Part shown: positions 3,523-54,200 of the stretch, in pieces
Position numbering within the stretch: the stretch's first letter is position 1
How the letters are laid out: each line of letters opens with the position of its first letter
Assembly (NCBI RefSeq): GCF_009834535.1
Contig: NC_045696.1
Span: 80,354,001-80,418,000, forward strand
Direction: 5' to 3'
From: Camelus ferus
Lineage: Eukaryota
Length of the DNA stretch: 64,000 nt
Program-made: the position numbers and the translations under genes
The notes under the pieces: generated by a model
What the model was told of the DNA's origin: nothing
Databases searched by the model: none
What the model saw: only the letters and a program-made list of their open reading frames with translations

Positions 3523-6500
3523 CTAGAGAAAGGAGCAGAATCCATTAGCTACCTGAACTCTTATTAGTAATGAGAAATTAATTACGATACAAATGTGGAG
3601 CAGATTAGCCCAACTTGGTAAATGCTTTTCACACTATCTGAATTAATAACCAACTAGTTGCTACGTTATGGTTAAGTTTAATGTCTCATATGTGTTCACA
3701 TAAAAGAAAAACATAAATTTAAGCACATAAAGCTTAGAATGAGATCCCTTTAATTATGGTATAGATTCTAGAAACAACAGTTGTTCATGCTTTTATTTAC
3801 TAACGAAAACTAGCAATTACAAATTTTTCACAATTTTTATATAATCTGATACATTAACTTCTACTCTGTACCAGGCAATGAAGTTAATACTAACTAGGTA
3901 CCCGAGAAATACAATGTCCTCTTTACCAGAATTTTCTAAATAACTGAGGTTTAGCTAGAAAATTCTTTAAATTTTAACCTTTAATCTTTCCAAGAGCTTT
4001 CAAAGCCCCTTTCTCAAACTAGTAAGATGACATTTAGGATTATTCATCTTTGAGAAAATATGTAAAATGGAAAAAAAAACTGCTCAGAATCATCAGGTTA
4101 ATCAAAATAACAGAAATAGCACAGGTGGCTGGACAGTTTAGATTGGCAGCTTCTGGATCCTTCTCCTCTCTGAATCAGGGCTGTTCTATACTTCTCTGCT
4201 AATTAATATTTCCATGAGACATGGACATAGAAGGTAATGAAGATAAAAAATAAGGCCTTATATTTTGTTTTCCCCCAGGGTCTTAGAAAATTAGTATCAT
4301 GATGAAATTGGATTACTCAGAACTACAATATTATGTCAGCATTTGTCTTTTTATAGTTAAATGCAAAGATCTGGAAACAATATAATTTCCTATAAGTTAC
4401 CCAGACCCTTTCAGACCCTGAAACTGCTGGTGCAGGGACACTTTGAGAACTGCTGTATGACTTAATCCAACCACAGTGCCTCGTTCCTACACAGGCCAAC
4501 TGTTTCTCCCAGTTTCCTGTGCTTCGTCCCAGCGTCTGAGGACAGTCTGCTGTCTTCAGATACTGCTGGAAGTCCGTCAGTGATAGAATCACACAATTCA
4601 AAACGTCTCATAGGCCAATTTGGCCGAAGGGGTAAGCAGAATTTATGCATTCATTTAGCCGGCATTTCTTGAACATCTGCTGTGTGTGAGGCTCTGTGTA
4701 TTCAAAGATGAATTTGACCTTGTCCCTGTGGGTTAGCTGGCCCTGTGTGTGGGCGGGGTTCTCTGATGGAGAGCAGCAGCTTTCCCATGTGCTGGAGAAC
4801 AGTCCCGATGGGCGCACAGAGATTAAACAGCTTTTGCACAAAACCTGCCAGAGTCAATGCTTATCTTGAAGTGTCCATGCGTCCATCAGCCTCTGCAGTT
4901 GAGTTCCTGAGCCCTAGTCATTTCACCTATTTAATGTGGCTTCTGCTTCAACGTGTTAGGAAGCACCTTTTACTGAAGACTGAACATTTTTAATTTCAGG
5001 AAAAGACAGAGTCCAGGTTGAAACCCACAAATGCCATGGTAATCTATTTAGCGCTCCTGCCATACCACAACCTTAATGAAGATGCCCCTCGCTAATGCGA
5101 CGCAAACAGCTACCTATTAACTCAGCCTCACCCGGGCTAGAGTCCCTACCCAGAGTAACTGCCCTTAATCACACACAAAACGGAAGTCGTGGTTTAAGAA
5201 GTAAGTGTTACATCTTCACTGAAAACTTACAACAAAGCCCAGTTTTAAAAGGCGTTTGGGGAGGTCTATCAGCAACAGTGCTGCTTCCTGTCTGCGCCCT
5301 GCCCTAAGGAGGGCAAAGGAAGTCCGATACACCTGTGTAGGCAGCAGCGCTCATGCTCACGAAGACGTTTCCCGAAGCAGATTCAGTGCTCTAATTCTGT
5401 ACCGTAATTGAAACTGAGCAAACAGTATATGTTCAAATAATTTCAATTTTCAAATTCATCAAAATCTGCTGTTTCTCGAATAGCTATTTTGTTCCTTTAA
5501 CTTGTTTTGCTCCTGTACCACAGCGTTTTATTAATTTTTTAAAATTGCAGTCCAGTTTAGAACAAGCACTGTGGAACAGGGGATAGGAATGAAAAACTGT
5601 ACAATTTTGCCATTAGAACATTTGTTTGTGTCGAGGGACAGTGCAATAAAGACAATGTCAGAACCGACCTCACAGAGCTGGTGCAAGGTGTAAGTGGGTT
5701 AGTAAAAAAGAAGTACTCAGAACAGTCTTGACAAGTAATAACCCCTCAATGTGTGTTAGTTATCATCATTTTATAATGCCGAGAAGACAGGATTTTAAAG
5801 AAATTCCACTGTCCCTTCTGAGAGGTCATCTCCATGGCTGTCGGCTGACATGGAGCTTATTTTCCTTCCTCCCAGGTGCAGGGTCGGCTGTGAGGCGAGG
5901 GGCACTGCCCTGCAGACACTGCCGTTCATCCTCTCCCACCGAGACCTGTCAGTGTAGCGCGGGCAAGGGTCTCTCTCTCCCAAAACAGGTGGGATTCAAT
6001 GAGAAAGCTCATGAAACAGATCCAGTTCCTACACAGAGTAGGCTTCAAATCAGTATCTGTTGATCCTAAATTTCTTTCTACACATGCTGACAGTAACTTC
6101 TCTTTCAAACAATAAAGACCAACCAAAACAAAACAGAAGCACACAAGCCAACACGACAAGAATATAATCTTTCACCTGATTCTGTAATCACTTCCTGTCA
6201 TTCCAAGAGGCAGGAGAAGGAAGAACCTTCTTTCCTCAGAGCCAGTGATTTACAGCCAGTTGCACAGTGGCCTCTCCAGGAGGCTCCGTAGGTTAACACC
6301 CCGTGGCTAGAACCACTTGGGGACAGATTAAAAATATTCATCAAATATTTGTTTTACTAAGACCAACTTAATTGTTTTCTCTCTCCTAAATCTTTTTTTT
6401 TTTAAAGACCAACTTAATTTTAAAACTCATTAAGAAGTAAGCCAGAGGCCTGTGGTGAAGGAATTACATGTGCTATACATCCCCAGACACAATGATTCAA

Positions 6501-8125: not shown

Positions 8126-9093
8126 TGCAACACTGCTATTAATGACAATGCACCCAGTTTCATGAATGATGTAACTCATTTCTCAATGCTGGAAAAGCCC
8201 AAGGATGTCCCCAGAATGGCATCCCTCCCACTTCCACGCCTTTAGGCTTTCTGGAGTTGGAGGGAAAGCTGTGCCAGTGAATACCACCCACCCTCTCCTG
8301 GTGACCCCAGGCCAAGAACTGCTGCTGAAAACAGGTCAAGATGGAGTGGTGGGTCCTACAGAAGTGCTGGCCATGAATGGAAATTTGGGCATTTTTCCAC
8401 TCAGGGAAAGGAAAAACGGGAGGAATGCTCTCTTATAGTAAAACAAATATTTACTAGGAAGAGGAAACAAACAAGGCAGAACGTTTGGTAGGTCACTGAA
8501 AGTTTACAGTCTAAATGAATTCTTTGTGGCTCTGCCCCCAACTGGCTTTAGTTTTGACTGTAATATCTCCTAGAAATGAAGCATTTGAATGCTAACAAGC
8601 ACACGTGGGTTTTAACGCTGGTAATTTAGCAGTGGTTTTTTAAAAAATGTCCTACGTATCTATGAATACAAAATAAATTTGCTTATTCTGCCGGCCTGTC
8701 AGAGTATTTCATGGTGGGTACAAAGATCCTGGCCACAATGGGGAGTCTGTTACCTTCACTATGAACTTGAACAAGCCGATCAGTCTCCAGGCTGTTTCCA
8801 GACACTTGGGATAATTGTCTTATTCACCTGGCAGGGCTCTTTATGAGATCCAAGTGAAAGGACCAAGGAAGTTGTAGATTCCTTATTAAATAGGCAAAAC
8901 AAGATTACTGACATCTTCAAGAAATTCTTTACACCTCAGTATTTTAGGCTTTCACGTTGTGAAAGATGACATTTTTGGCCTGAAGTGCAGCTTAAGGAAA
9001 AAACTCAGATGTGTTACATCTTTAAATGTGTCTTTATTTTAAATCACTTTAGAGGAAAATGATGATATACAAAGAACTTAATTTAAAAATCTG

Positions 9094-9211
9094 GGTGGGA
9101 AGGGACAGACTGGGATTTTAAAATGTAGAATAGATAAACAAGATTATACTGTATAGCACAGGGAAATATATACAGGATCTTATGGTAGCTCACAGTGAAA
9201 AAAAATGTGAC
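9094..9211 (+). mobile_element. Short, relatively young L1 3'UTR fragment with 8-bp TSD
   Basis: agataaacaagattatactgtatagcacagggaaatata... cetartiodactyl-type L1 3'UTR; flanked by aaaatctg at 9086-9093 and 9212-9219; homologous to 38854-38935 in this window. Confidence 0.85.
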
Positions 9212-10494
9212 AAAATCTGTTTCCTTCAGACAGTTTCGTTTCGAAAGAAACATCTAAGAATACTCTGGATGGCTTATAACAAATTCGCAGTAGAAAATAT
9301 GAGACAATGCTAAGGTTTGTGTGTTTACTTCGTTGTTGCTATCTTATAATCCCCAGGCCCACTGCAGGCCAACAACTGCCCATTAATATTAATCCCTCAA
9401 AATATCTAACCTGCTGACCTCAAATGGTCTGTGGTCTACAAACAGCTGCAAATGGCACGCTTCAAAACATCACAAACTAACAGCTTTAAGAAGCTCAATG
9501 CAGCTGCACCTTAACAATGACATGTCACTGTCTTTATCTTAACTCCCCTGGGCTCCACAGACTGTGTGTGCGTGGACCTGCTCCATGACTGAGGTGATGT
9601 TTGGGAATGGAGGATGTCAAAACAGGAATGGAGAGCCTGTGACCTCAGTCCACCCAGAACACTGAGTCCTGCCATGTCTACGCAGATGCAAGTGGCAGCA
9701 GATGGCATCACGTGGGGACACCTGAGGTGAGGAAGGTGCCTTTCTGAAACTGGTTTGGATGTTGCTGAGTCCCAGTTTGCAGACTGAGCACTCAAGTGCC
9801 AAGAGCGATTCCCGAAAGACCAATGAGAAAATGAGTTAATTTCCTACCCCATGTCCCCAGCCATACACGGAACTCCTGGCTTGTGAGTAATCAGGCTGCA
9901 ATACTTTTTGGTTTTGATCTTTTGTATGCTCCTTTTCCAAGAAATGTCACTATAGCTACTGGTGAAACTCTTTACATAGAATGAAATTCCTATTTCTAAT
10001 TTTGTTTACACTGCACTTAATTGATACATTTTAAAGGGGATTTTTTTTATATTCAGAGGAAGGATGACTAGACTCTCGAAAGACCACCTGAGAACCTTGA
10101 AACTTTCCATTCCTTTCCTTTGCTTTCAAACACGTGCAGGGACTCTCACCTTCAAGCATACTCTTCCCAGAGTCTTCCAAATTTCCATTAGCCCACTTTT
10201 ACTTTGGTGGCCTTGCCTCAATCTTCCCTCACTTAGGAAAAAGCTATCCAATTCCATTGTTACTTATTTATTTTTAAATAGAAATTCCATTTTAAAGAGA
10301 AGAAAAAAACTGTAATCTGAATTCTACTTCGGGTCTAATTAAGATCTCAAATAGTTCATTTACCATCTCTCACCTCTTCCTGTGCTCAGAATATTTTAGC
10401 CTGAAACTGCATAAGCTAGCAATAGTTTTTTTTTTTCCAGGATGAATTTTTGTACTTTTTCATAAGAAATAAAAATGTTTTTTTCCATTAGGTG

Positions 10495-17389: not shown

Positions 17390-19310
17390 TAATTCCAGGT
17401 GAGATGGAGTAAGCACACTCTCTCCTCTCTGCCCTGAAGAATGCAGCTATTAAACCTGGACAAAATAAATGAAGCAGCTATTTAAGAATTCCAAAAAGGA
17501 AATAGCAGGAGGATTTGGGGAAGAATCTGAACTACCACCAAAGCAGCAGTGAATGCATCATTTTCTTCCCCTCCATTATCCCCCAGACTGGACTCAATGC
17601 AGCCTAAAATCCAGGAGTGGACAACTGCACGGACAGAGAGCTTTAGGAGAAGCCTGGCTCGAAAAAAGAAAAGGTCTCTGAACGGTCAGAGTGAACAGGG
17701 GAAAATCCTTCAATCCTCCTTTTTTCCCTTCTTTTCTGCATTCCCTCATTCCCTAGCCCTTAGCTAATTCCATCATATTAACAGCCTGAAGAAGAAAAAC
17801 CACATGATCATATCAACTGATTCAGCAAAAGCATCTGATGAAATCAAAACATACATTCATAATAAAAATTCTCAGCCAACTATGGATAGAAGGGAACTTT
17901 CTTAACCTGAAAACGGCATTTATAGAAAGATCAACAGTTAACATTACACTTAATATTGAAAGACTAAATGAAAGGTCAGCAACAAAGCAAGGACGTCTAC
18001 TCTTACCACTCCTATTGAACATCAGGTACTACAAAGTCCCTGCCAGTGGGGGAAGAGAAAGGCACAGAGATGGGAAATAAAGAAACAAACTGCAACACTG
18101 CTGAGACCGTTAAAGACCACCCAAATAGAGGCGCACAGTGACCATGAATTGGAAGACTCTACACAGAAAGAATATCCATTCTCCCCAAATTGATCTATAA
18201 ATGTAATGCAATTCTAATAGAATTCCAGCAGGATTCTTCTTAGAATAGATAAGCTGATTCTAAAAGTTATGTGGCAAGGTAAAGGAACTAAAATTGCCAA
18301 CACAAATTTGAAAAGTAAGAATAAAGTTGGAAGAATCACACTACTTGATTTAGAGCTTACTGTAAAAACTACAGTCATCAAGATAGTGTGGTACTGGTAA
18401 AGGGAGAGACACAAAGATCAACAGAATAGAGATTCCAGAAATAGATCCACATAAATATGACCAATAGATTTTCGACAAACGTGTGAAAGTAATTCAATGA
18501 AGAATGAACAGTCTTTCTAAAGTGGTATTGGAACAATTGGCTATCGAAAGGAAAAATAAACTTCAATAATCTAAACCTCATATTTAATTCAAAATTTAAC
18601 TCAGAATGTATCATAGATCTAAAAGTAGAATGTAAAATATAAAACTTTTAAGAAAAAAAAAACATGAGAAAATATTTGTTGCTTAGAATTAAAGAGCTTT
18701 TAGATACGATGTGAAAAGCATGATCCATAAAAGAAAAAAAACTGAAAAACTGGATTTCATCAAAATTGAACAGTTTTGCACTTTTGGAGAATGAGGACAA
18801 GCTACAGAGAAAAATATCTACAAATTATATATTTGACAAAGGAATTGTACCCAGAATGTGTAAGACCGCTCAAAACTCAACAGTAACCAAACAACCCAAT
18901 TAAAAGATAAGCAAAAGACTGGAACATACATTCCACCAAAGAGGATATATACGTGGCAAATAAGCACACGAAAAGATGTTTAACATCATTAGCCATTAGG
19001 AAAAATGAAAATTAAAGCTACATTGAAGTACCACTATATCCCTATTAAAATGGTTAAAATAAAAAGTGCTTAATAGGATAAGGAACAACTGAAAGTCTCA
19101 TATTTTGCTGGTGCAAAATGCAAAGTGTATTATAACAACATTGGAAAACTTTTTTTTTAAAGTTTCTTATAAACTTTAACATTAACTTATCATTATGACC
19201 CAGCAATCCCACTTCTTGGGCTTTACTCTAGAGAAATGAAAAGTTTATGTTTACACAAAAACCTGCACATAAATGTTTATATATCAGCTCAATACATAAC
19301 CCCAAACTGG
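17390..19310 (+). mobile_element. Ancient L1M-type LINE: 5'UTR-like segment plus degraded ORF2 (RT to C-terminus) and start of 3'UTR
   Basis: 17765-17880 translates as a degenerate IHHIN..KKKNHMIISIDAEKAFDKIQH (L1 ORF2 RT); caagatagtgtggtactgg; gacccagcaatcccacttcttggg; many frameshifts. Confidence 0.9.
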
Positions 19311-25706: not shown

Positions 25707-25796
25707 AATTTTAATGGAGGCCCCGGGAATTGAACCCAGGACCTCGTGCATACTAAGTGCTCACTCTACCACTGAGCTATACCCTCCCCTCCTCTA
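25707..25796 (-). mobile_element. tRNA-Ala-derived SINE (camelid Vic-1 type)
   Basis: Reverse complement reads ggggagggtatagctcagtggtagag...gcacgaggtcctgggttcaattcccggggcctcca + A-rich tail; A and B boxes present; imperfect TSD gtaaccgactctt (25694-25706) / gtaaccaattctt (25797-25809). Confidence 0.85.
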
Positions 25797-36480: not shown

Positions 36481-38573
36481 CTGCAAAACAAGACCCACGT
36501 ATGAGTTGATGGCCTTTTGTGAAAATGTAGTAGTAGCCACCATTCCTGATAAGGAAAAGCTCTAAGTGGTTTCCATGAAAATCAGCAGCTCCTATTCTTT
36601 TTTTTTCTGTTTAATACCCACAGGGCTCTCCTTCCATTTCCTTTACAAAGTTAAATACTATAATAACACGGGGTCATTTTTAATACTTAGTACTGCTGGC
36701 TAGACGACTTAATATCACTATGATTGCATTTGCTGATTGTGAGGTTTGGATGCTGGAAAGTACATGAAACCTGTGGTTGGCCCGGGGGGAGTGGTACCAG
36801 GAGACAGCGGACAGTGTGGAGCAAGCTGTCAAGTGGTCCTCCTGTGAGAAGCCTCTGGGACTGGCCGGGCCTGGGGAAGGCTGCTCAGCCGTGAGGTTCC
36901 CGGTCAGCCTGGGGTGCCGTTGACAAGTTTCTCCTAGTGAAACTCTCCCCTTACAGACAAGTCCTTTGGGTAAAGGCTGGATGTCTTCATGGAGCCCCAC
37001 TTAAAAGACAAAAATTCCCGAGAGAGGGACACATTACTGCAGAAACACTCAGTGTGACACAAGCTATCTGAATACTTCTCAGGATTAAAAAAACAGCAAG
37101 CGGGGCCACCAGAGGGGCCTGGGTGAGGCTGATGCCACCAGGTGAAGAGCACGGGACTGCCTCACCCGACTGCCCACCTGCCCCACAAATCTGGGCTGTT
37201 TCCTCCTCTGGTTTGCTCCCAATAATGACATTTTCCCAGTAGATTATTTTACAAAGGCCTTTACTCCACGAAGTTGTTTTAGGGAAAATACTTTTACCCT
37301 GTTCCATGATAGTTACTAAAGTAACTCCCACAAATGCCCTAAGCTGCTTATTAGGTTAGAGTTACAATGAAGTCACGTGTACTAGGGCCACGAAACAAAG
37401 GGGACTATTAAAGACAGCCATTCTGACATTACTGATTAGAGAACCGGCACTGAAAAGGCGACTGGGAACAAGGAAGACTGAGGAGATTCAATTAATCACT
37501 GACGTCATGTGCTGGCACAGTTGTGAACTGTAAGCAAAGAGTGGCATCTAACTTTTCATTCACCATCAGTGGTCAAGAGAGCCATGGAAATTCGAAATAT
37601 ACTTAGGTTTTCACAATAAGCCACTGCACATACGTGACTTCTCTTCTAGGTAGGTGAGATTTTTAGCAGAGAATATGATTTTTTTGTTAAGAACAGCTGT
37701 GTCCATCTCAAAGCATTCTCAGGTTTTCAGCTTAAAATAGGGACCGACCGATGTGAAAAACAAAACACTCCAGGTGGCTATCGTGGCACAGGATAAAAAG
37801 CAAGCTGCACACCTGCATCGCTTGTTTGTAAAAGTTACTGTTAACTCTTTCCTTTTTTGCCATATGTAACACTTTAAAAAAATTTCATAGTTACAGGAAT
37901 AATCAGAGTGGGGAGATATGTCATTTTTAAAGTTCTGATAACTATACTTTTTCCTATTAAAGCCTAATGCATTTTTTTAGAAAGAACATCTAAGAATTTT
38001 TTAAAAGGCACCATAGAAGGAATTTGATCTGTAACATTGTCCCACTTTACTTCACCTAATGTGACCAGCAGTGAATAAATAATCAGACTCAGAAATCATG
38101 ACAAAAATAAAAAGGTATTTTCCAAACTTGTTATAAAGTGTGACACTCTTCATTAGCCCACAATACTGTATTTTGCCTCCATTGTACCTGAGAATTTCTA
38201 GATTACCAAACTCATTTGCTGTCTCCAACTTATCCTTCCTGCTGATTGCTTCTGACACTTCCTCTGCTTATAAGAATTTCCAGAGAAAGTGTGCCGAGAG
38301 ATGAGAAACATATTTATTCTATTAATTAGGGCGACTGGCTTAAAGGCATGACTAGAAAATTTGAAAAACATGATGAAGATGTACATTTCAAGCAGACTCT
38401 GATCCCTGATGCTGTGTTTGAAAGAAAAAAACTGTCAATATGTGATTAAGTATAATCATAAATGTAGTTTAATAGAATTAGACAATTGCCCACTATTATT
38501 ACACAGATGTTTATCTTATTAGAAAATAGGATTTGCTACTGGATTTGAATGAAACAAGTTCCAAAAACCTCAC

Positions 38574-38645
38574 CTTCAGAATTTCCATCAGTAATCTCCA
38601 GCAAGTACTTGAGTATTTCTGAACCACCATTGTCCTTTGGAGGAT
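38574..38645 (-). CDS. FNDC3B: FNDC3B coding exon (~exon 16), 72 nt, phase 1->1
   Basis: ttgcAG|AT CCT ... GAA G|GTgagg; (D)PPKDNGGSEILKYLLEITDGNSE; branch-point-like TAACTAAC ~24 nt upstream. Confidence 0.96.
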
Positions 38646-38696
38646 CTGCAAAATAAGCAAATGCCTTGTTAGTTATAAAAGCATATTGATTCTTGA

Positions 38697-39066
38697 GGGA
38701 GGTGCCAAGATGGCAGAGAGACTCACAGCTCGCCCTCTCCCACAAATACACCAAGAATTACATCTACAAACCCACTGAATCGCACAGAACACCTACTGAA
38801 CTCTGGCAGAGTGTTTCTCGCTTCAAAATACAGGAGGAGTCTCACAAAATTTGATAAACAAGTTTATACTATACAGCACAGGGAACTATAGTCAATATCT
38901 TGTAGTAATTTATGGTGAAAAAGAATATGAAAGCAAATATATGTATGTTCATGTATGACTGAAGTATTATGCTGTATACCAGAAGCTGACATAGCATTGT
39001 AAACGGACTATACTTCAATAAAAATATATGTACCCCTCCAAACAAACAAACAAAATGTTAAAAAAA
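38697..39066 (+). mobile_element. Bipartite L1-derived insertion (5'UTR fused to 3'UTR) with poly(A) and 20-bp TSD
   Basis: 5' gggaggtgccaagatggc (YY1-like L1 start); cacaaatac...cagaacacctactgaac; 3'UTR from 38854; AATAAA 39017-39022; TSD 38677-38696 vs 39067-39086 (18/20). Confidence 0.88.
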
Positions 39067-40797
39067 AAAAGCATATGGATTTTTGATGGTAAATATTATT
39101 AGAACACATAGAATCATACAACATTATATTGCCTCAATTCTGGATTCAACCAAAAGGCACAATAATTATTATTTCACTCAACTCCTTTCTTGAAAAACAG
39201 AAGAAACAAACAAAAACACCATAAAACCTTCTAATTATTCAAGGTTTGTAGAGCTAGAAATGTCAAAGAGTTAGCATTTATTCAGTGAAACACGAATAAA
39301 ACTCAAAACATGAATTTATTTTCCTAAGAGTTATGCTCATGTATTTATTTTGAGAATTCTGAAGCCTGCTCTGCAGTATTTACATAAGATGAACCATTCA
39401 TATATTTCTTTTTGTAAAATGATTTTATTCTTTCTTATTTCACTTGTATCATCAGTGACCAGGTCCTTCTGACAGATGGAGAGGGAAAGAAAGGGCAGTG
39501 CAGAGCTTACCGACAAAATAAATAAAACATCGGAATATAATAAATCTGGTCCATCACAGTTTGCTGCTAAGCAAACTTTATGTACCTAGGGTATCTGTCT
39601 GCAAATTCTGGGCCTGCAAGAGTTTTCTTTTCTGAGTGTAAAAACACCTTGCATTATAATTTTACAAGACTATACAGAATTCACCTCTACTATCAACTGG
39701 GCACCTCTATATTTTAGATACACCCTCAGGTTATTCACACAGACTTGGAAACTAATTCCAACTCCTTTCACTTGGTCTTTCCATTAATAGATACATACTT
39801 CAGATATTTACAGCAATAATTAAAAACATATACAGCATATAGTATGGCTAATCAAAGTAAATATTCAGTGCTGACAGAAATTTCTAAGATTTTCTGAGAA
39901 AAAAGCTTTAGATCTGGCAAAAAGCACACCTAGATTTTTACAGTTTCTCTTAATGATATCCATCTTCCAGGGAGTAATTCTGTCTCAAAATTGCTAGGTA
40001 ACTTAAAGCAGTTACATGTCTCAGTGGTTGGTCTCCAATAATGATTTAATAATGTTTTAAACTCCTTTTATATCACTTGACTGCCAGGTAAAATCTTATT
40101 TTAGATTACTACTTTGTTTTTTCGCCTGTTAGGTAGTTACTATTATTATATGATACTAGTGATAACCATACACATCACAACAGTTTCACATACGATTGCA
40201 AATGTTTCTCAACATTCTAATGGCAGTTATTTCACTGAAATAACCCATGTAGCAGGTGAGCCACAATATCCTTCCTTCTACCAGGTTTCCACAAACACCA
40301 CATGATAAACTTTAATACGAAAAATTCCTGAAGTTTAAGACTTCTGATTACATACAAACAACAGCAAAAACTAACATTTTCCTAATTCATTATAGCTTAA
40401 ACATTCTGTTTATCAAAATTTAATTAAGATGACATATCTAAATTTTGAAATTTATTTTCAATATTAACTTTATAAATCAATTTTTGTATTAAAAATTGCT
40501 GCTTTTTAAGCTACTGAAGAATGAAATATATATTCAGAGATCACTATATTCAAATAATACATCAAAATATAGGAGGAAAAACATTTAATAGCATAAAATC
40601 ATAAATTAAATGCTCTTAAAATTGTCATATTTACCAATCTGTCGAATTCTCAGGATGTTTCTCATACATATATTCCAAATGTGAACAACTCCCTCAGATA
40701 CTATGGTTTGTTTATTATCGGTTTGTCACTACTGAAATTAATCAGTTTTTTAAAAACCCGTCAAAAAAGCAGCAGCAGTGACAGCAATAAAACATAC

Positions 40798-51290: not shown

Positions 51291-54200
51291 TTCTGATGTC
51301 CATATATGTTTAAAATATGGAGTTTTTCAGTAAACTTTTATAAATTCCTCCTGCACTATTAATAGCCAGGAGGTAAGGGAGCATGCTAGAACACAAAACC
51401 AGAGTTTAACATATGCCTGAATACAAAGTTCTATTTTCTACATGCACTTAGCACATGATTTCTCCCTCAAAGCCATCCAACAAAGTAAGGCCTCTCTGAA
51501 TAGATTTTAAAAATGATTTCTAGAAGCTAAAGGTGTAACAAGATTCCTAGATGATAAAGATCAACCAAAATTGTTAATCAATGGCAATGTAGTTACTTCA
51601 TCTTACGGAGTGACATTTTAGACTGAACTGAGGTTTTTAATAATGTTATCCCAGAAGTTGTAGGGAACCGTGGGGAGATCTTTAAACACAGATACGCAAG
51701 TCTTTGGGGGGGATGGTTTAGGCATGGCGTAGCCCAAAGCCTCAGGAGTGAGCAAATTAAATAACCTTTCCAAGGACCTCCACATATAATCAGTCTTCCA
51801 CCTCTCTGTTTACAAACACATGTACGTTCCAGCGGAGAAGTCAATTTACAGATGGACCTGCCTATTAAAACTGGTATCTAGGTATATGAAAAATATTTGA
51901 CTTATTTTATAAAATGCAACTAATTTTAAAGACGTGTTTTAAAGTAATTATTAATTTGTAAAACTATGTAACTGAAAACCAAAAATGTTTTTTTCAAGTC
52001 AGTTTTCCTTTTTTATTAACTTAGTTTCCCCATAAAGCTGTCCTCAGCGCTTGGGAAGACGAGTCCTCAAAATGGGTCGGTGTCCTGTTAAGAAACAACA
52101 CACCCATGGCCAATTCTGTACATACAGCTCATACATATTCCAGCTAATTCAGGCCACAGTGTTTTCCTGCCACGAGTAATTCTACAGAGTGTGGGGGAAT
52201 GTGGTTGCTCTGGCTAACACTTTCAGTCATCCTGGCACTAACCGTCTTGGAAGCTGGTATTTCCAACACTGGCACTAACAGATGAAGTTGACAGCTATTG
52301 TCAATTGCCTTCAAATTAACAGATTGGAAATGATCCTTCCTGATCCTCTTCTTGGCACAAGAACATGAGAATGGCCAACACAGGGAAGCTAGAATCCATG
52401 GTGAACTAGCCCCCCTTGATCATGTGACTTGCACTCTTCCTGATGTGTTCTTCATCTATGGCCTCTTCCCACTGACCTATTTCTCTTACAGGTTCTTGCA
52501 CTGCCGGTGCCTGTGGGCTTCCCTAGCTGCTCTTACCCGGTTTGATAACTGCCTGCTAAACAAGTAACATGCATTTGGTTATCAGTTGTCATGTGCTCAT
52601 GGCCCAGGTCAGCTGGATCCAGACATGGGCTGAGTGATTCTGGGCTGGGCACTCTCTGTAACAGCATAGTTCAACCTGTCAGAAACATCAACGATAAATC
52701 AAATAAAAACTAAGGTTGCGCTGGCCAACTGAACTACTGCCAGGCTCAAAGATTTAGTCTGCTAGTACATCTATATTTAGAAGTTGTTCCAGCACTGGCC
52801 GACCCTAGGCAACATCAAAGATAAATCTTGGCCTGAGAAATAAAAGAGCATGTATGTGTTCAGCATAACCATATATAAGAAGGGGTTCATAACAGGGAGG
52901 TGGAGGCACTCCACATGTGGGTGGATTCAAAAGTTCCTTGGGCCAAACCTCACTTTCCCCTCAGTGATGCCTCTTTCATTTTACTGACCACTCTGGCACA
53001 CAGGGACTTTCAAAGGTAAGAAAAGGCAATGGAGTAGTTTGCGGCTGCATGTTACTAAATAAATACTGCACGCATTTTATCCCCTGGCACACTAGTTTTC
53101 TATGTTTGTGGGAGAGGCTTGGCTACCTCAAATAGCCAAGGATGATCACCAGGTCCTCTGGTTTAAAACAAACAAACAGAATGTTCCTATACAGCCCTCC
53201 AAATGCAGAGGAGGTTCACCTGATGTTGGGTGCTCTGAAAAGATTAATGTGCTGAGACTGTCCGAGTGAAGGGAAAGGAGAGGAGGAGCAAGGGAGCGAT
53301 TTGAGAACAGGCTGTCTATACAATTTATAAGTGAACCAAGAGCCAACGTCCAAGGCAGCCATCCTGTGGCTGGCAACCAACAAGCATGACACATGAGTTG
53401 ATAAATCAGGTGCCAAGGACCAACATGGCTATTTGTAATTTAGCCTCAGCTGGAAGTGCCCCACAAAGTCTGCTGCCCAAGCATGTAATAACCCCATCCT
53501 GTACATACGTGACAAATGGTTTAAAAAAAAAAAAAAAAAAAAAAAAGCACAGAGAGAATCTGCTTCAGGTGTGCAGGTGCCTGGGGCTGGGGTCCCTAAA
53601 AGAAAGGGCTCTTTTTAACTCTGCTTGGGCTTTGATGCCTGTGGACCTGAGTATTAAATCCTTCTTTGCCTCCTTTGAAAGGAGCTATAGTGGAGAAAGC
53701 TATTCCCCTGGCTCTCAGAAACCCGCCCTTGGACATGGCAGCAGAGATCTGTGATGTGGCAAAACACTGTCATTCTGCCAGGTCACTGATTTGGCATTTA
53801 TGTAAAGGACTGCTTCTGATGGACAAGTGAAAAACGAACCTGGGACCCCACTCTCCACAAGGACATTTCCCAAGAATGAGCAAAAGAGCTCAGAGGGCCC
53901 GGGCAAATGGCAATTTCTCCTAACATCCAGCCAGGCATTGGTGGTGGGCTGGGGAATGGAAACAGGCCTTCCCAGCTTTCCCCACTGGACCAACATGCCA
54001 TGCAAGTTCAGGCAGCAGGGCTCCTCAGAGACAGCGGCAACTAGAACCCACAGGGAGGCTCTCCGCGTCCGTTCTGGGGAACCCACTGTCACTCTGCTGG
54101 CTGACGCTCCATCCCCTCCCAGAAGGGCTGCTGTCTAACCAGAAGAGCCCTGTGCAAATGCACGCATGCTTAGAAGCCTTCTGAAAGATGATCAATACTA

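Follow-up and report, generated by a model that had tools for sequence, protein, structure and literature searches.

A short element of 370 bp, found at positions 38697-39066 of the 64-kb stretch of wild camel DNA analyzed here (the window), joins the beginning of an L1-type 5'UTR to the end of an L1-type 3'UTR. It was inserted as a single target-primed (TPRT) event between target-site duplications (TSDs) of 20 bp, and is probably a SpIRE-like retrocopy of an L1 RNA that had been spliced from its 5'UTR to its 3'UTR and mobilised in trans. The argument for splicing comes from the position at which the two halves meet, considered against related 5' ends and a second copy of the 3'UTR.

The features of the insertion are gathered in Table 1. 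The two TSD copies agree at 18 of 20 bases; among 2000 pairs of random sites spaced by 390 bp, none did as well within ±15 bases. The TTAT that precedes the left copy forms an L1-endonuclease-type T/A boundary. The single TPRT insertion proposed by the sequence-only reading is therefore upheld, with its coordinates, its duplication and its A-rich tail. The TSD divergence of 2/20 (95% interval 0.01-0.32) is compatible with an old insertion and poor for dating. The resemblance of the tail to 20 bases at 53166-53185 comes down to simple (AAAC)n sequence. The second anatomical proposal, an L1-type 5' end fused to a 3' end, was found to be correct as well: the two parts measure 157 nt and about 170 nt, no remnant of ORF1 or ORF2 was detected in the element, and the longest frame crossing the junction has 64 codons and lacks a start. 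Judging from the TSD, the poly(A) and the 5' start, the parent of the element is presumably L1-type, and the 3' segment presumably as well. The CAAGATGGC start motif is presumably the YY1-type site of L1 promoters.

Table 1. Positions, in the window, of the element, its flanks and the features compared with it
Feature	Position	Strand	Remarks
Left TSD	38677-38696	+	20 bp; opens at the A-run after TTAT; 18/20 match to right copy
5' block, first 157 nt of L1-type 5'UTR	38697-38853	+	GC 0.48; from G-rich start to putative donor
CAAGATGGC start motif	38706-38714	+	within the 5' block
5'UTR/3'UTR junction	38853-38854	+	inferred splice joint G/(GT...AG)/ATAAAC
Terminal L1-type 3'UTR segment	38854-39022	+	GC 0.29; about 170 nt; ends in AATAAA (39017-39022)
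Degenerate A-rich tail	39023-39066	+	(AAAC)n; terminal A-run continues into the TSD
Right TSD	39067-39086	+	18/20 bases same as left copy
L1-type 3'UTR fragment, acceptor proxy	9086-9219	+	more diverged; AG ends at 9133
Host 3' splice site AG and branch-point-like CTAAC	38646-38647 and 38668-38672	-	adjoining exon identified by eye

The donor side of the junction was investigated with an 18-base motif of the 5' block, which detected ten metagenome loci. Nine of them (L001-L003 and L005-L010) were kept as full-type 5' ends; L004 was dropped as a chance match with only 20 bases in common. The nine loci constitute one interspersed family, in which the upstream flank differs from copy to copy and a G-rich start precedes a long body of high GC content, and the first 115 bases or so of these 5' ends are 72-78% identical to the 5' block (nhmmer E 5.9e-12). 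Beyond the motif, their 5' region extends as far as the contigs reach, at most about 1.2 kb, and their 5'UTR measures at least 1.1 kb. Since ORF1 is not seen in these short contigs, they are labelled L1-type by their architecture; they presumably resemble whale or dolphin L1. The contigs themselves are contaminants from host mammals in metagenome assemblies, and L009 carries a tandem duplication of about 45 bases within its L1-type 5'UTR, around the search motif.

None of the nine related loci shows the short form: all of them run on past the donor-like site. The base context matching the junction (marked by a slash) is G/GTA in eight loci and G/GCA in the ninth. The 5' block was aligned to the 9 loci under 5 scoring schemes, its end being left free over 40 bases. 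Of the resulting 45 alignments (ties included), 32 stopped exactly at the GT, 11 stopped one base before it and 2 eight bases before it. The strength of this donor is middling, as 1-12 other GT sites per 0.7-1.2 kb equal or exceed it on a crude U1-match score.

A closer relative was provided by the 64-codon frame that crosses the junction. Compared with 1.84 billion protein representatives, this frame gave two hits, P0001 and P0002. The latter was rejected as an unrelated repeat protein matched by chance; P0002-P0006 are proteins of 920-1112 residues, and P0002 is made of tandem repeats of about 99 residues. P0001, a single ORF from a 1031-base contig, is 79% identical to the frame of the element over 38 residues. 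Over the 40 codons before the junction, the two align without gaps and differ at 16 or more of 120 nt; after it, they fall to the random level (17 differences in 33 nt, for a random mean of 18.7). Past the junction, P0001 is in register with the related 5'UTRs, so that it is the translation of a full-type 5'UTR belonging to a much closer family. Its register with the element is unique: the last 10 codons show 6 differences at offset 0 and 12-21 at 12 other offsets, and none of 5000 random stretches had 7 or fewer. This register places a Gly codon on G38853, followed by Arg, a Gly-Arg pair also present in eight of the nine related loci, and this Gly codon implies that the next base of the parent was a G. 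A putative G/GTAG donor fits P0001, which permits any third base; the T is predicted from the relatives that are 72-78% identical. Used as a query, P0001 found itself alone among 5 candidates.

On the acceptor side, the sole other dispersed match in the 64-kb window is a stretch of 78 bases at 9133-9210, 78% identical to the 3' block. At this level of identity it serves as a stand-in for the parent and not as the parent itself, and it belongs to another subfamily or age class. Downstream of a shared G, 27 of 30 bases are identical in the two sequences, compared with 3 of the 12 that precede it. In the 9133 copy, AATAG lies directly before ATAAACAAG, the homology begins right after this AG, and the upstream sequence includes a G-rich tract that is absent from the 3' segment of the element. 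The AG announced by the sequence-only reading in front of the 3' breakpoint is thus indeed present, in a copy of 78% identity. Its context is poor. The pyrimidine fraction is 0.35, compared to 0.60-0.80 at seven putative host acceptors (one of which was picked automatically and is possibly wrong), a value within the lowest 23% of the 4558 AGs of the window, and no clear branch point was detected by eye. The absence of a pyrimidine tract counts against splicing. The breakpoints are compatible with a GT...AG splice, the putative donor being favoured by G/GTA in 8/9 relatives and the putative acceptor by the AG of the proxy copy. The fragment at 9086-9219 is a small insertion of its own: direct repeats of 8 bases occur at 9086 and 9212, poly(A) is lacking, and the fragment stops at an internal A-rich stretch in the manner of a tailless, internally primed retrocopy.

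The window contains fibronectin-type-III exons on the minus strand, one of which matches FNDC3A in the PDB; their peptides are presumably those of FNDC3B. The element therefore lies antisense in an intron. The host 3' splice site, at a distance of 31 bases from its left TSD, and the CTAAC, only 4 bases away, are both intact, and the branch A of this CTAAC is 24 bases from the end of the host intron. Read in the orientation of the pre-mRNA, the element contains several AGs preceded by pyrimidine-rich sequence (e.g. 39036 and 38692) as well as donor-like sites at 38845 and 38726, from which a cryptic exon might possibly be produced in the host pre-mRNA. Among the 24 sequencing runs listed, the 14 best, from three organisms and six studies, contain 0.92-0.95 of the words sampled from the 1601-base stretch 38100-39700; one of them is possibly the source of the window. 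As the insertion represents about a quarter of this stretch, all three organisms probably carry it. Shares of 0.45-0.81 in RNA runs fit intronic host RNA and are uninformative on the element, and runs with shares of 0.07-0.23 were not counted as evidence. Two other repeats were observed in the window: a tRNA-derived SINE-like element on the minus strand at 25715-25786, its only Rfam hit and presumably of the camelid SINE type, and an old, broken L1 ORF2-like fragment on the plus strand at 17790-19100, recognized by eye.

Under the preferred splice origin, a full-length camelid L1 would have been transcribed from its internal promoter, and the spliceosome would have joined, in cis, a donor located about 157 nt into the 5'UTR (G/GTAG) to an AG separated from the poly(A) signal by about 165 nt. 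One intron would thereby have taken away the remaining 5'UTR, both ORFs and the G-rich portion of the 3'UTR. The product would be a polyadenylated, noncoding RNA of about 0.4 kb and, since it coded for nothing, ORF1p and ORF2p would have to be borrowed from another L1, as for a processed pseudogene. Such a dependence on the ORF1p and ORF2p of another L1 is described for Pol II RNAs without proteins of their own (PMC2666806). The resulting RNA would then have been inserted by full-length TPRT, antisense, in the intron of the FNDC3-type gene.

At the joint itself, AAAATTTG is followed directly by ATAAACAAG. Since G38853 is common to both sides, the breakpoint may slide by one base, and the microhomology is limited to this shared G; ATAA, the sequence just past the junction, is similar to the donor (GTAG/GTAA), and an imperfect microhomology may have existed in the true parent. 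The crude chance of GT and AG ends in a random deletion is 0.4-0.7%, and it falls to 0.05-0.09% if the donor has to score as well as the present one. These figures bear on a template jump or RNA ligation, by which the reverse transcriptase would have copied the tail and about 170 nt, stopped, and resumed on a 5'-terminal fragment of L1 RNA. The same TSD-flanked bipartite product would be expected, and the poor acceptor context, the shared G and the ATAA/GTAG likeness would suit it. Insertions of two RNAs by ORF2p occur in cells (PMC11702581), a jump has been proposed for the R2 SIDEs (PMC3414825), and the U6/L1-type chimeras constitute a parallel. This route is nevertheless regarded as a minor possibility: it does not predict a GT together with an AG at the breakpoint (chance of about 0.05-0.7%), and the match of the proxy copy upstream of the joint, 3/12 bases only, speaks against it. 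The GT...AG ends would be explained equally well if the same donor had been joined to the 3'UTR fragment of another L1 located downstream, or to another RNA by trans-splicing, before retrotransposition; L1 transcripts spliced to adjacent sequence and then retrotransposed have been described (10.1101/2025.02.02.635956). Such a chimera requires two elements in the correct order, and no sign of two subfamilies appears in the halves, so that it is judged improbable. An even poorer candidate, quite improbable, is the insertion of a full-length L1 that was later mostly lost by end-joining repair. One TSD would still flank the remnant, and the proximity of the host branch point and acceptor, 31 bases off, would give a selective reason to purge a long insert; but a microhomology of one G is slight, the GT/AG coincidence would be left unexplained, and the short form looks shared by the three organisms of the 14 best runs, a measure to which a longer allele is invisible.

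A question that is in part distinct from how the junction formed is whether a short master gave rise to the element. In this scheme, the junction would have arisen once, probably by splicing, and the element would be the copy of a transcribed, self-propagating bipartite mini-L1. Both ends are complete and the start motif is kept, two A-rich tracts in the tail could record two rounds of insertion (a weak indication), and a host promoter is able to reactivate a SpIRE (10.1101/2025.02.02.635956). Against this stand the loss of most of the promoter and the lack of a second copy in the sequences searched, and descent from such a master appears unlikely. The sequence-only reading had credited the RNA with both a promoter and a 3' end; the promoter part of this view is not supported, since 157 nt are left of a 5'UTR that exceeds 1.1 kb in the relatives. 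In the human SpIRE97/622, where more of the 5'UTR is kept, the reporter activity drops from about 267-fold to about 7-fold (PMC5860796), and the element would have lost its promoter activity likewise. With most of its promoter lost, it is probably a dead-end copy. No second copy was found in the 64-kb window. Outside camelids, pattern scans of viral contigs and of bacterial and archaeal genomes gave no match to the element, nor did blastn on plasmids and phages, and two junction-spanning frames gave no candidate in word-index protein searches. The ORF-less bipartite families reported in 2018 in the available text of PMC5786205 belong only to RTE, Ingi, Vingi and R2.

The number of copies would by itself be insufficient to settle the matter. 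SpIRE97/622 is represented by 116 copies with one junction and was still judged a dead end (PMC5860796); identical junctions are therefore insufficient as proof of a family, and family status calls for private shared changes. It is accordingly doubtful that camelids harbour a self-propagating family of ORF-less mini-L1 derived from one 5'UTR-to-3'UTR splicing event. In a repeat table of the casein cluster, the 14 wild-camel rows examined for L1-x_Vpa all start at or beyond consensus position 3716 (PMC6726744). Because the consensuses may lack the 5'UTR, this speaks only weakly against a very abundant family.

Neither a 5'UTR-to-3'UTR spliced L1 copy nor a camelid SpIRE is described in the portions of the literature covered by the search, and an earlier description is possible. 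The accessible text of PMC2896524, PMC13756887, 10.1101/2022.02.16.480772 and PMC5860798 is likewise silent on a 5'UTR-to-3'UTR spliced L1, the consulted text of a camelid transposable element survey (PMC8605555) mentions no such copy, and a motif search in published papers gave only unrelated primer matches. If the splice origin is true, the formation of SpIREs would extend beyond primates and beyond acceptors near the 5' end, the whole coding region of an L1 could be removed by one splice, and an L1 RNA that encodes no protein could still be integrated in trans in germ-line DNA. The presence of a donor-like site in the L1 family of another mammal makes such an event searchable across related genomes. 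If a family exists, it would fill a gap noted by Kojima in the available text of PMC5786205, extending the bipartite ORF-absent LINEs to the L1 clade; such a family would show that splicing can give rise to a new parasite, and would depart from the view of SpIREs as dead ends. A unique copy would be a neat fossil of minor importance.

The element can finally be compared to the known classes of short retroelements. It is not a SINE, as it has no pol III head of the tRNA, 7SL or 5S type (Rfam gives no hit in the element). It resembles HAL1 in being an internally reduced, non-autonomous L1 derivative with a poly(A) and a TSD (PMC5786205, PMC5322556, PMC13756887, as far as their consulted text goes). 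This assignment was rejected: HAL1 keeps ORF1, whereas the element is devoid of any ORF and the only convincing match of its frame is a translated 5'UTR. Processed pseudogenes and U6/L1-type chimeras are also spliced or fused RNAs inserted in trans (PMC2666806, 10.1101/2025.02.02.635956), but both halves of the element are L1-type. The bipartite ORF-absent LINEs, i.e. RIME, NARTc, the Vingi-1 derivatives, Bov-A, RTESINE and the R2 SIDEs, are closer in anatomy, since they consist only of the 5' and 3' ends of a LINE without a pol III head, as does the element (PMC5786205, PMC3414825). In the available text of these sources, however, they are multi-copy families of the RTE, Ingi, Vingi and R2 clades ascribed to internal deletion, recombination or template jumps, whereas the element is L1-type, known from one copy, and shows splice-like ends. 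SpIREs are retrotransposed L1 with a TSD of about 6-25 bp, a 3' poly(A) and an endonuclease-type site (Larson et al. 2018, PMC5860796), and all three of these TPRT marks are found in the element. The likeness probably goes further, as SpIREs show an internal deletion from an early GU donor of the 5'UTR (position 98 in human; putative donor at about 158 in the element), a truncated promoter and, often, an antisense position in introns. In the part of that paper available, their acceptors are located in the 5'UTR or ORF1 (622, 790, 853 and 976) and ORF2 is kept, whereas the element is joined in the 3'UTR, lacks both ORFs and resides in a non-primate host. The two SpIRE classes, one intra-5'UTR and the other 5'UTR/ORF1, both keep ORF2, and the element therefore stands outside them.
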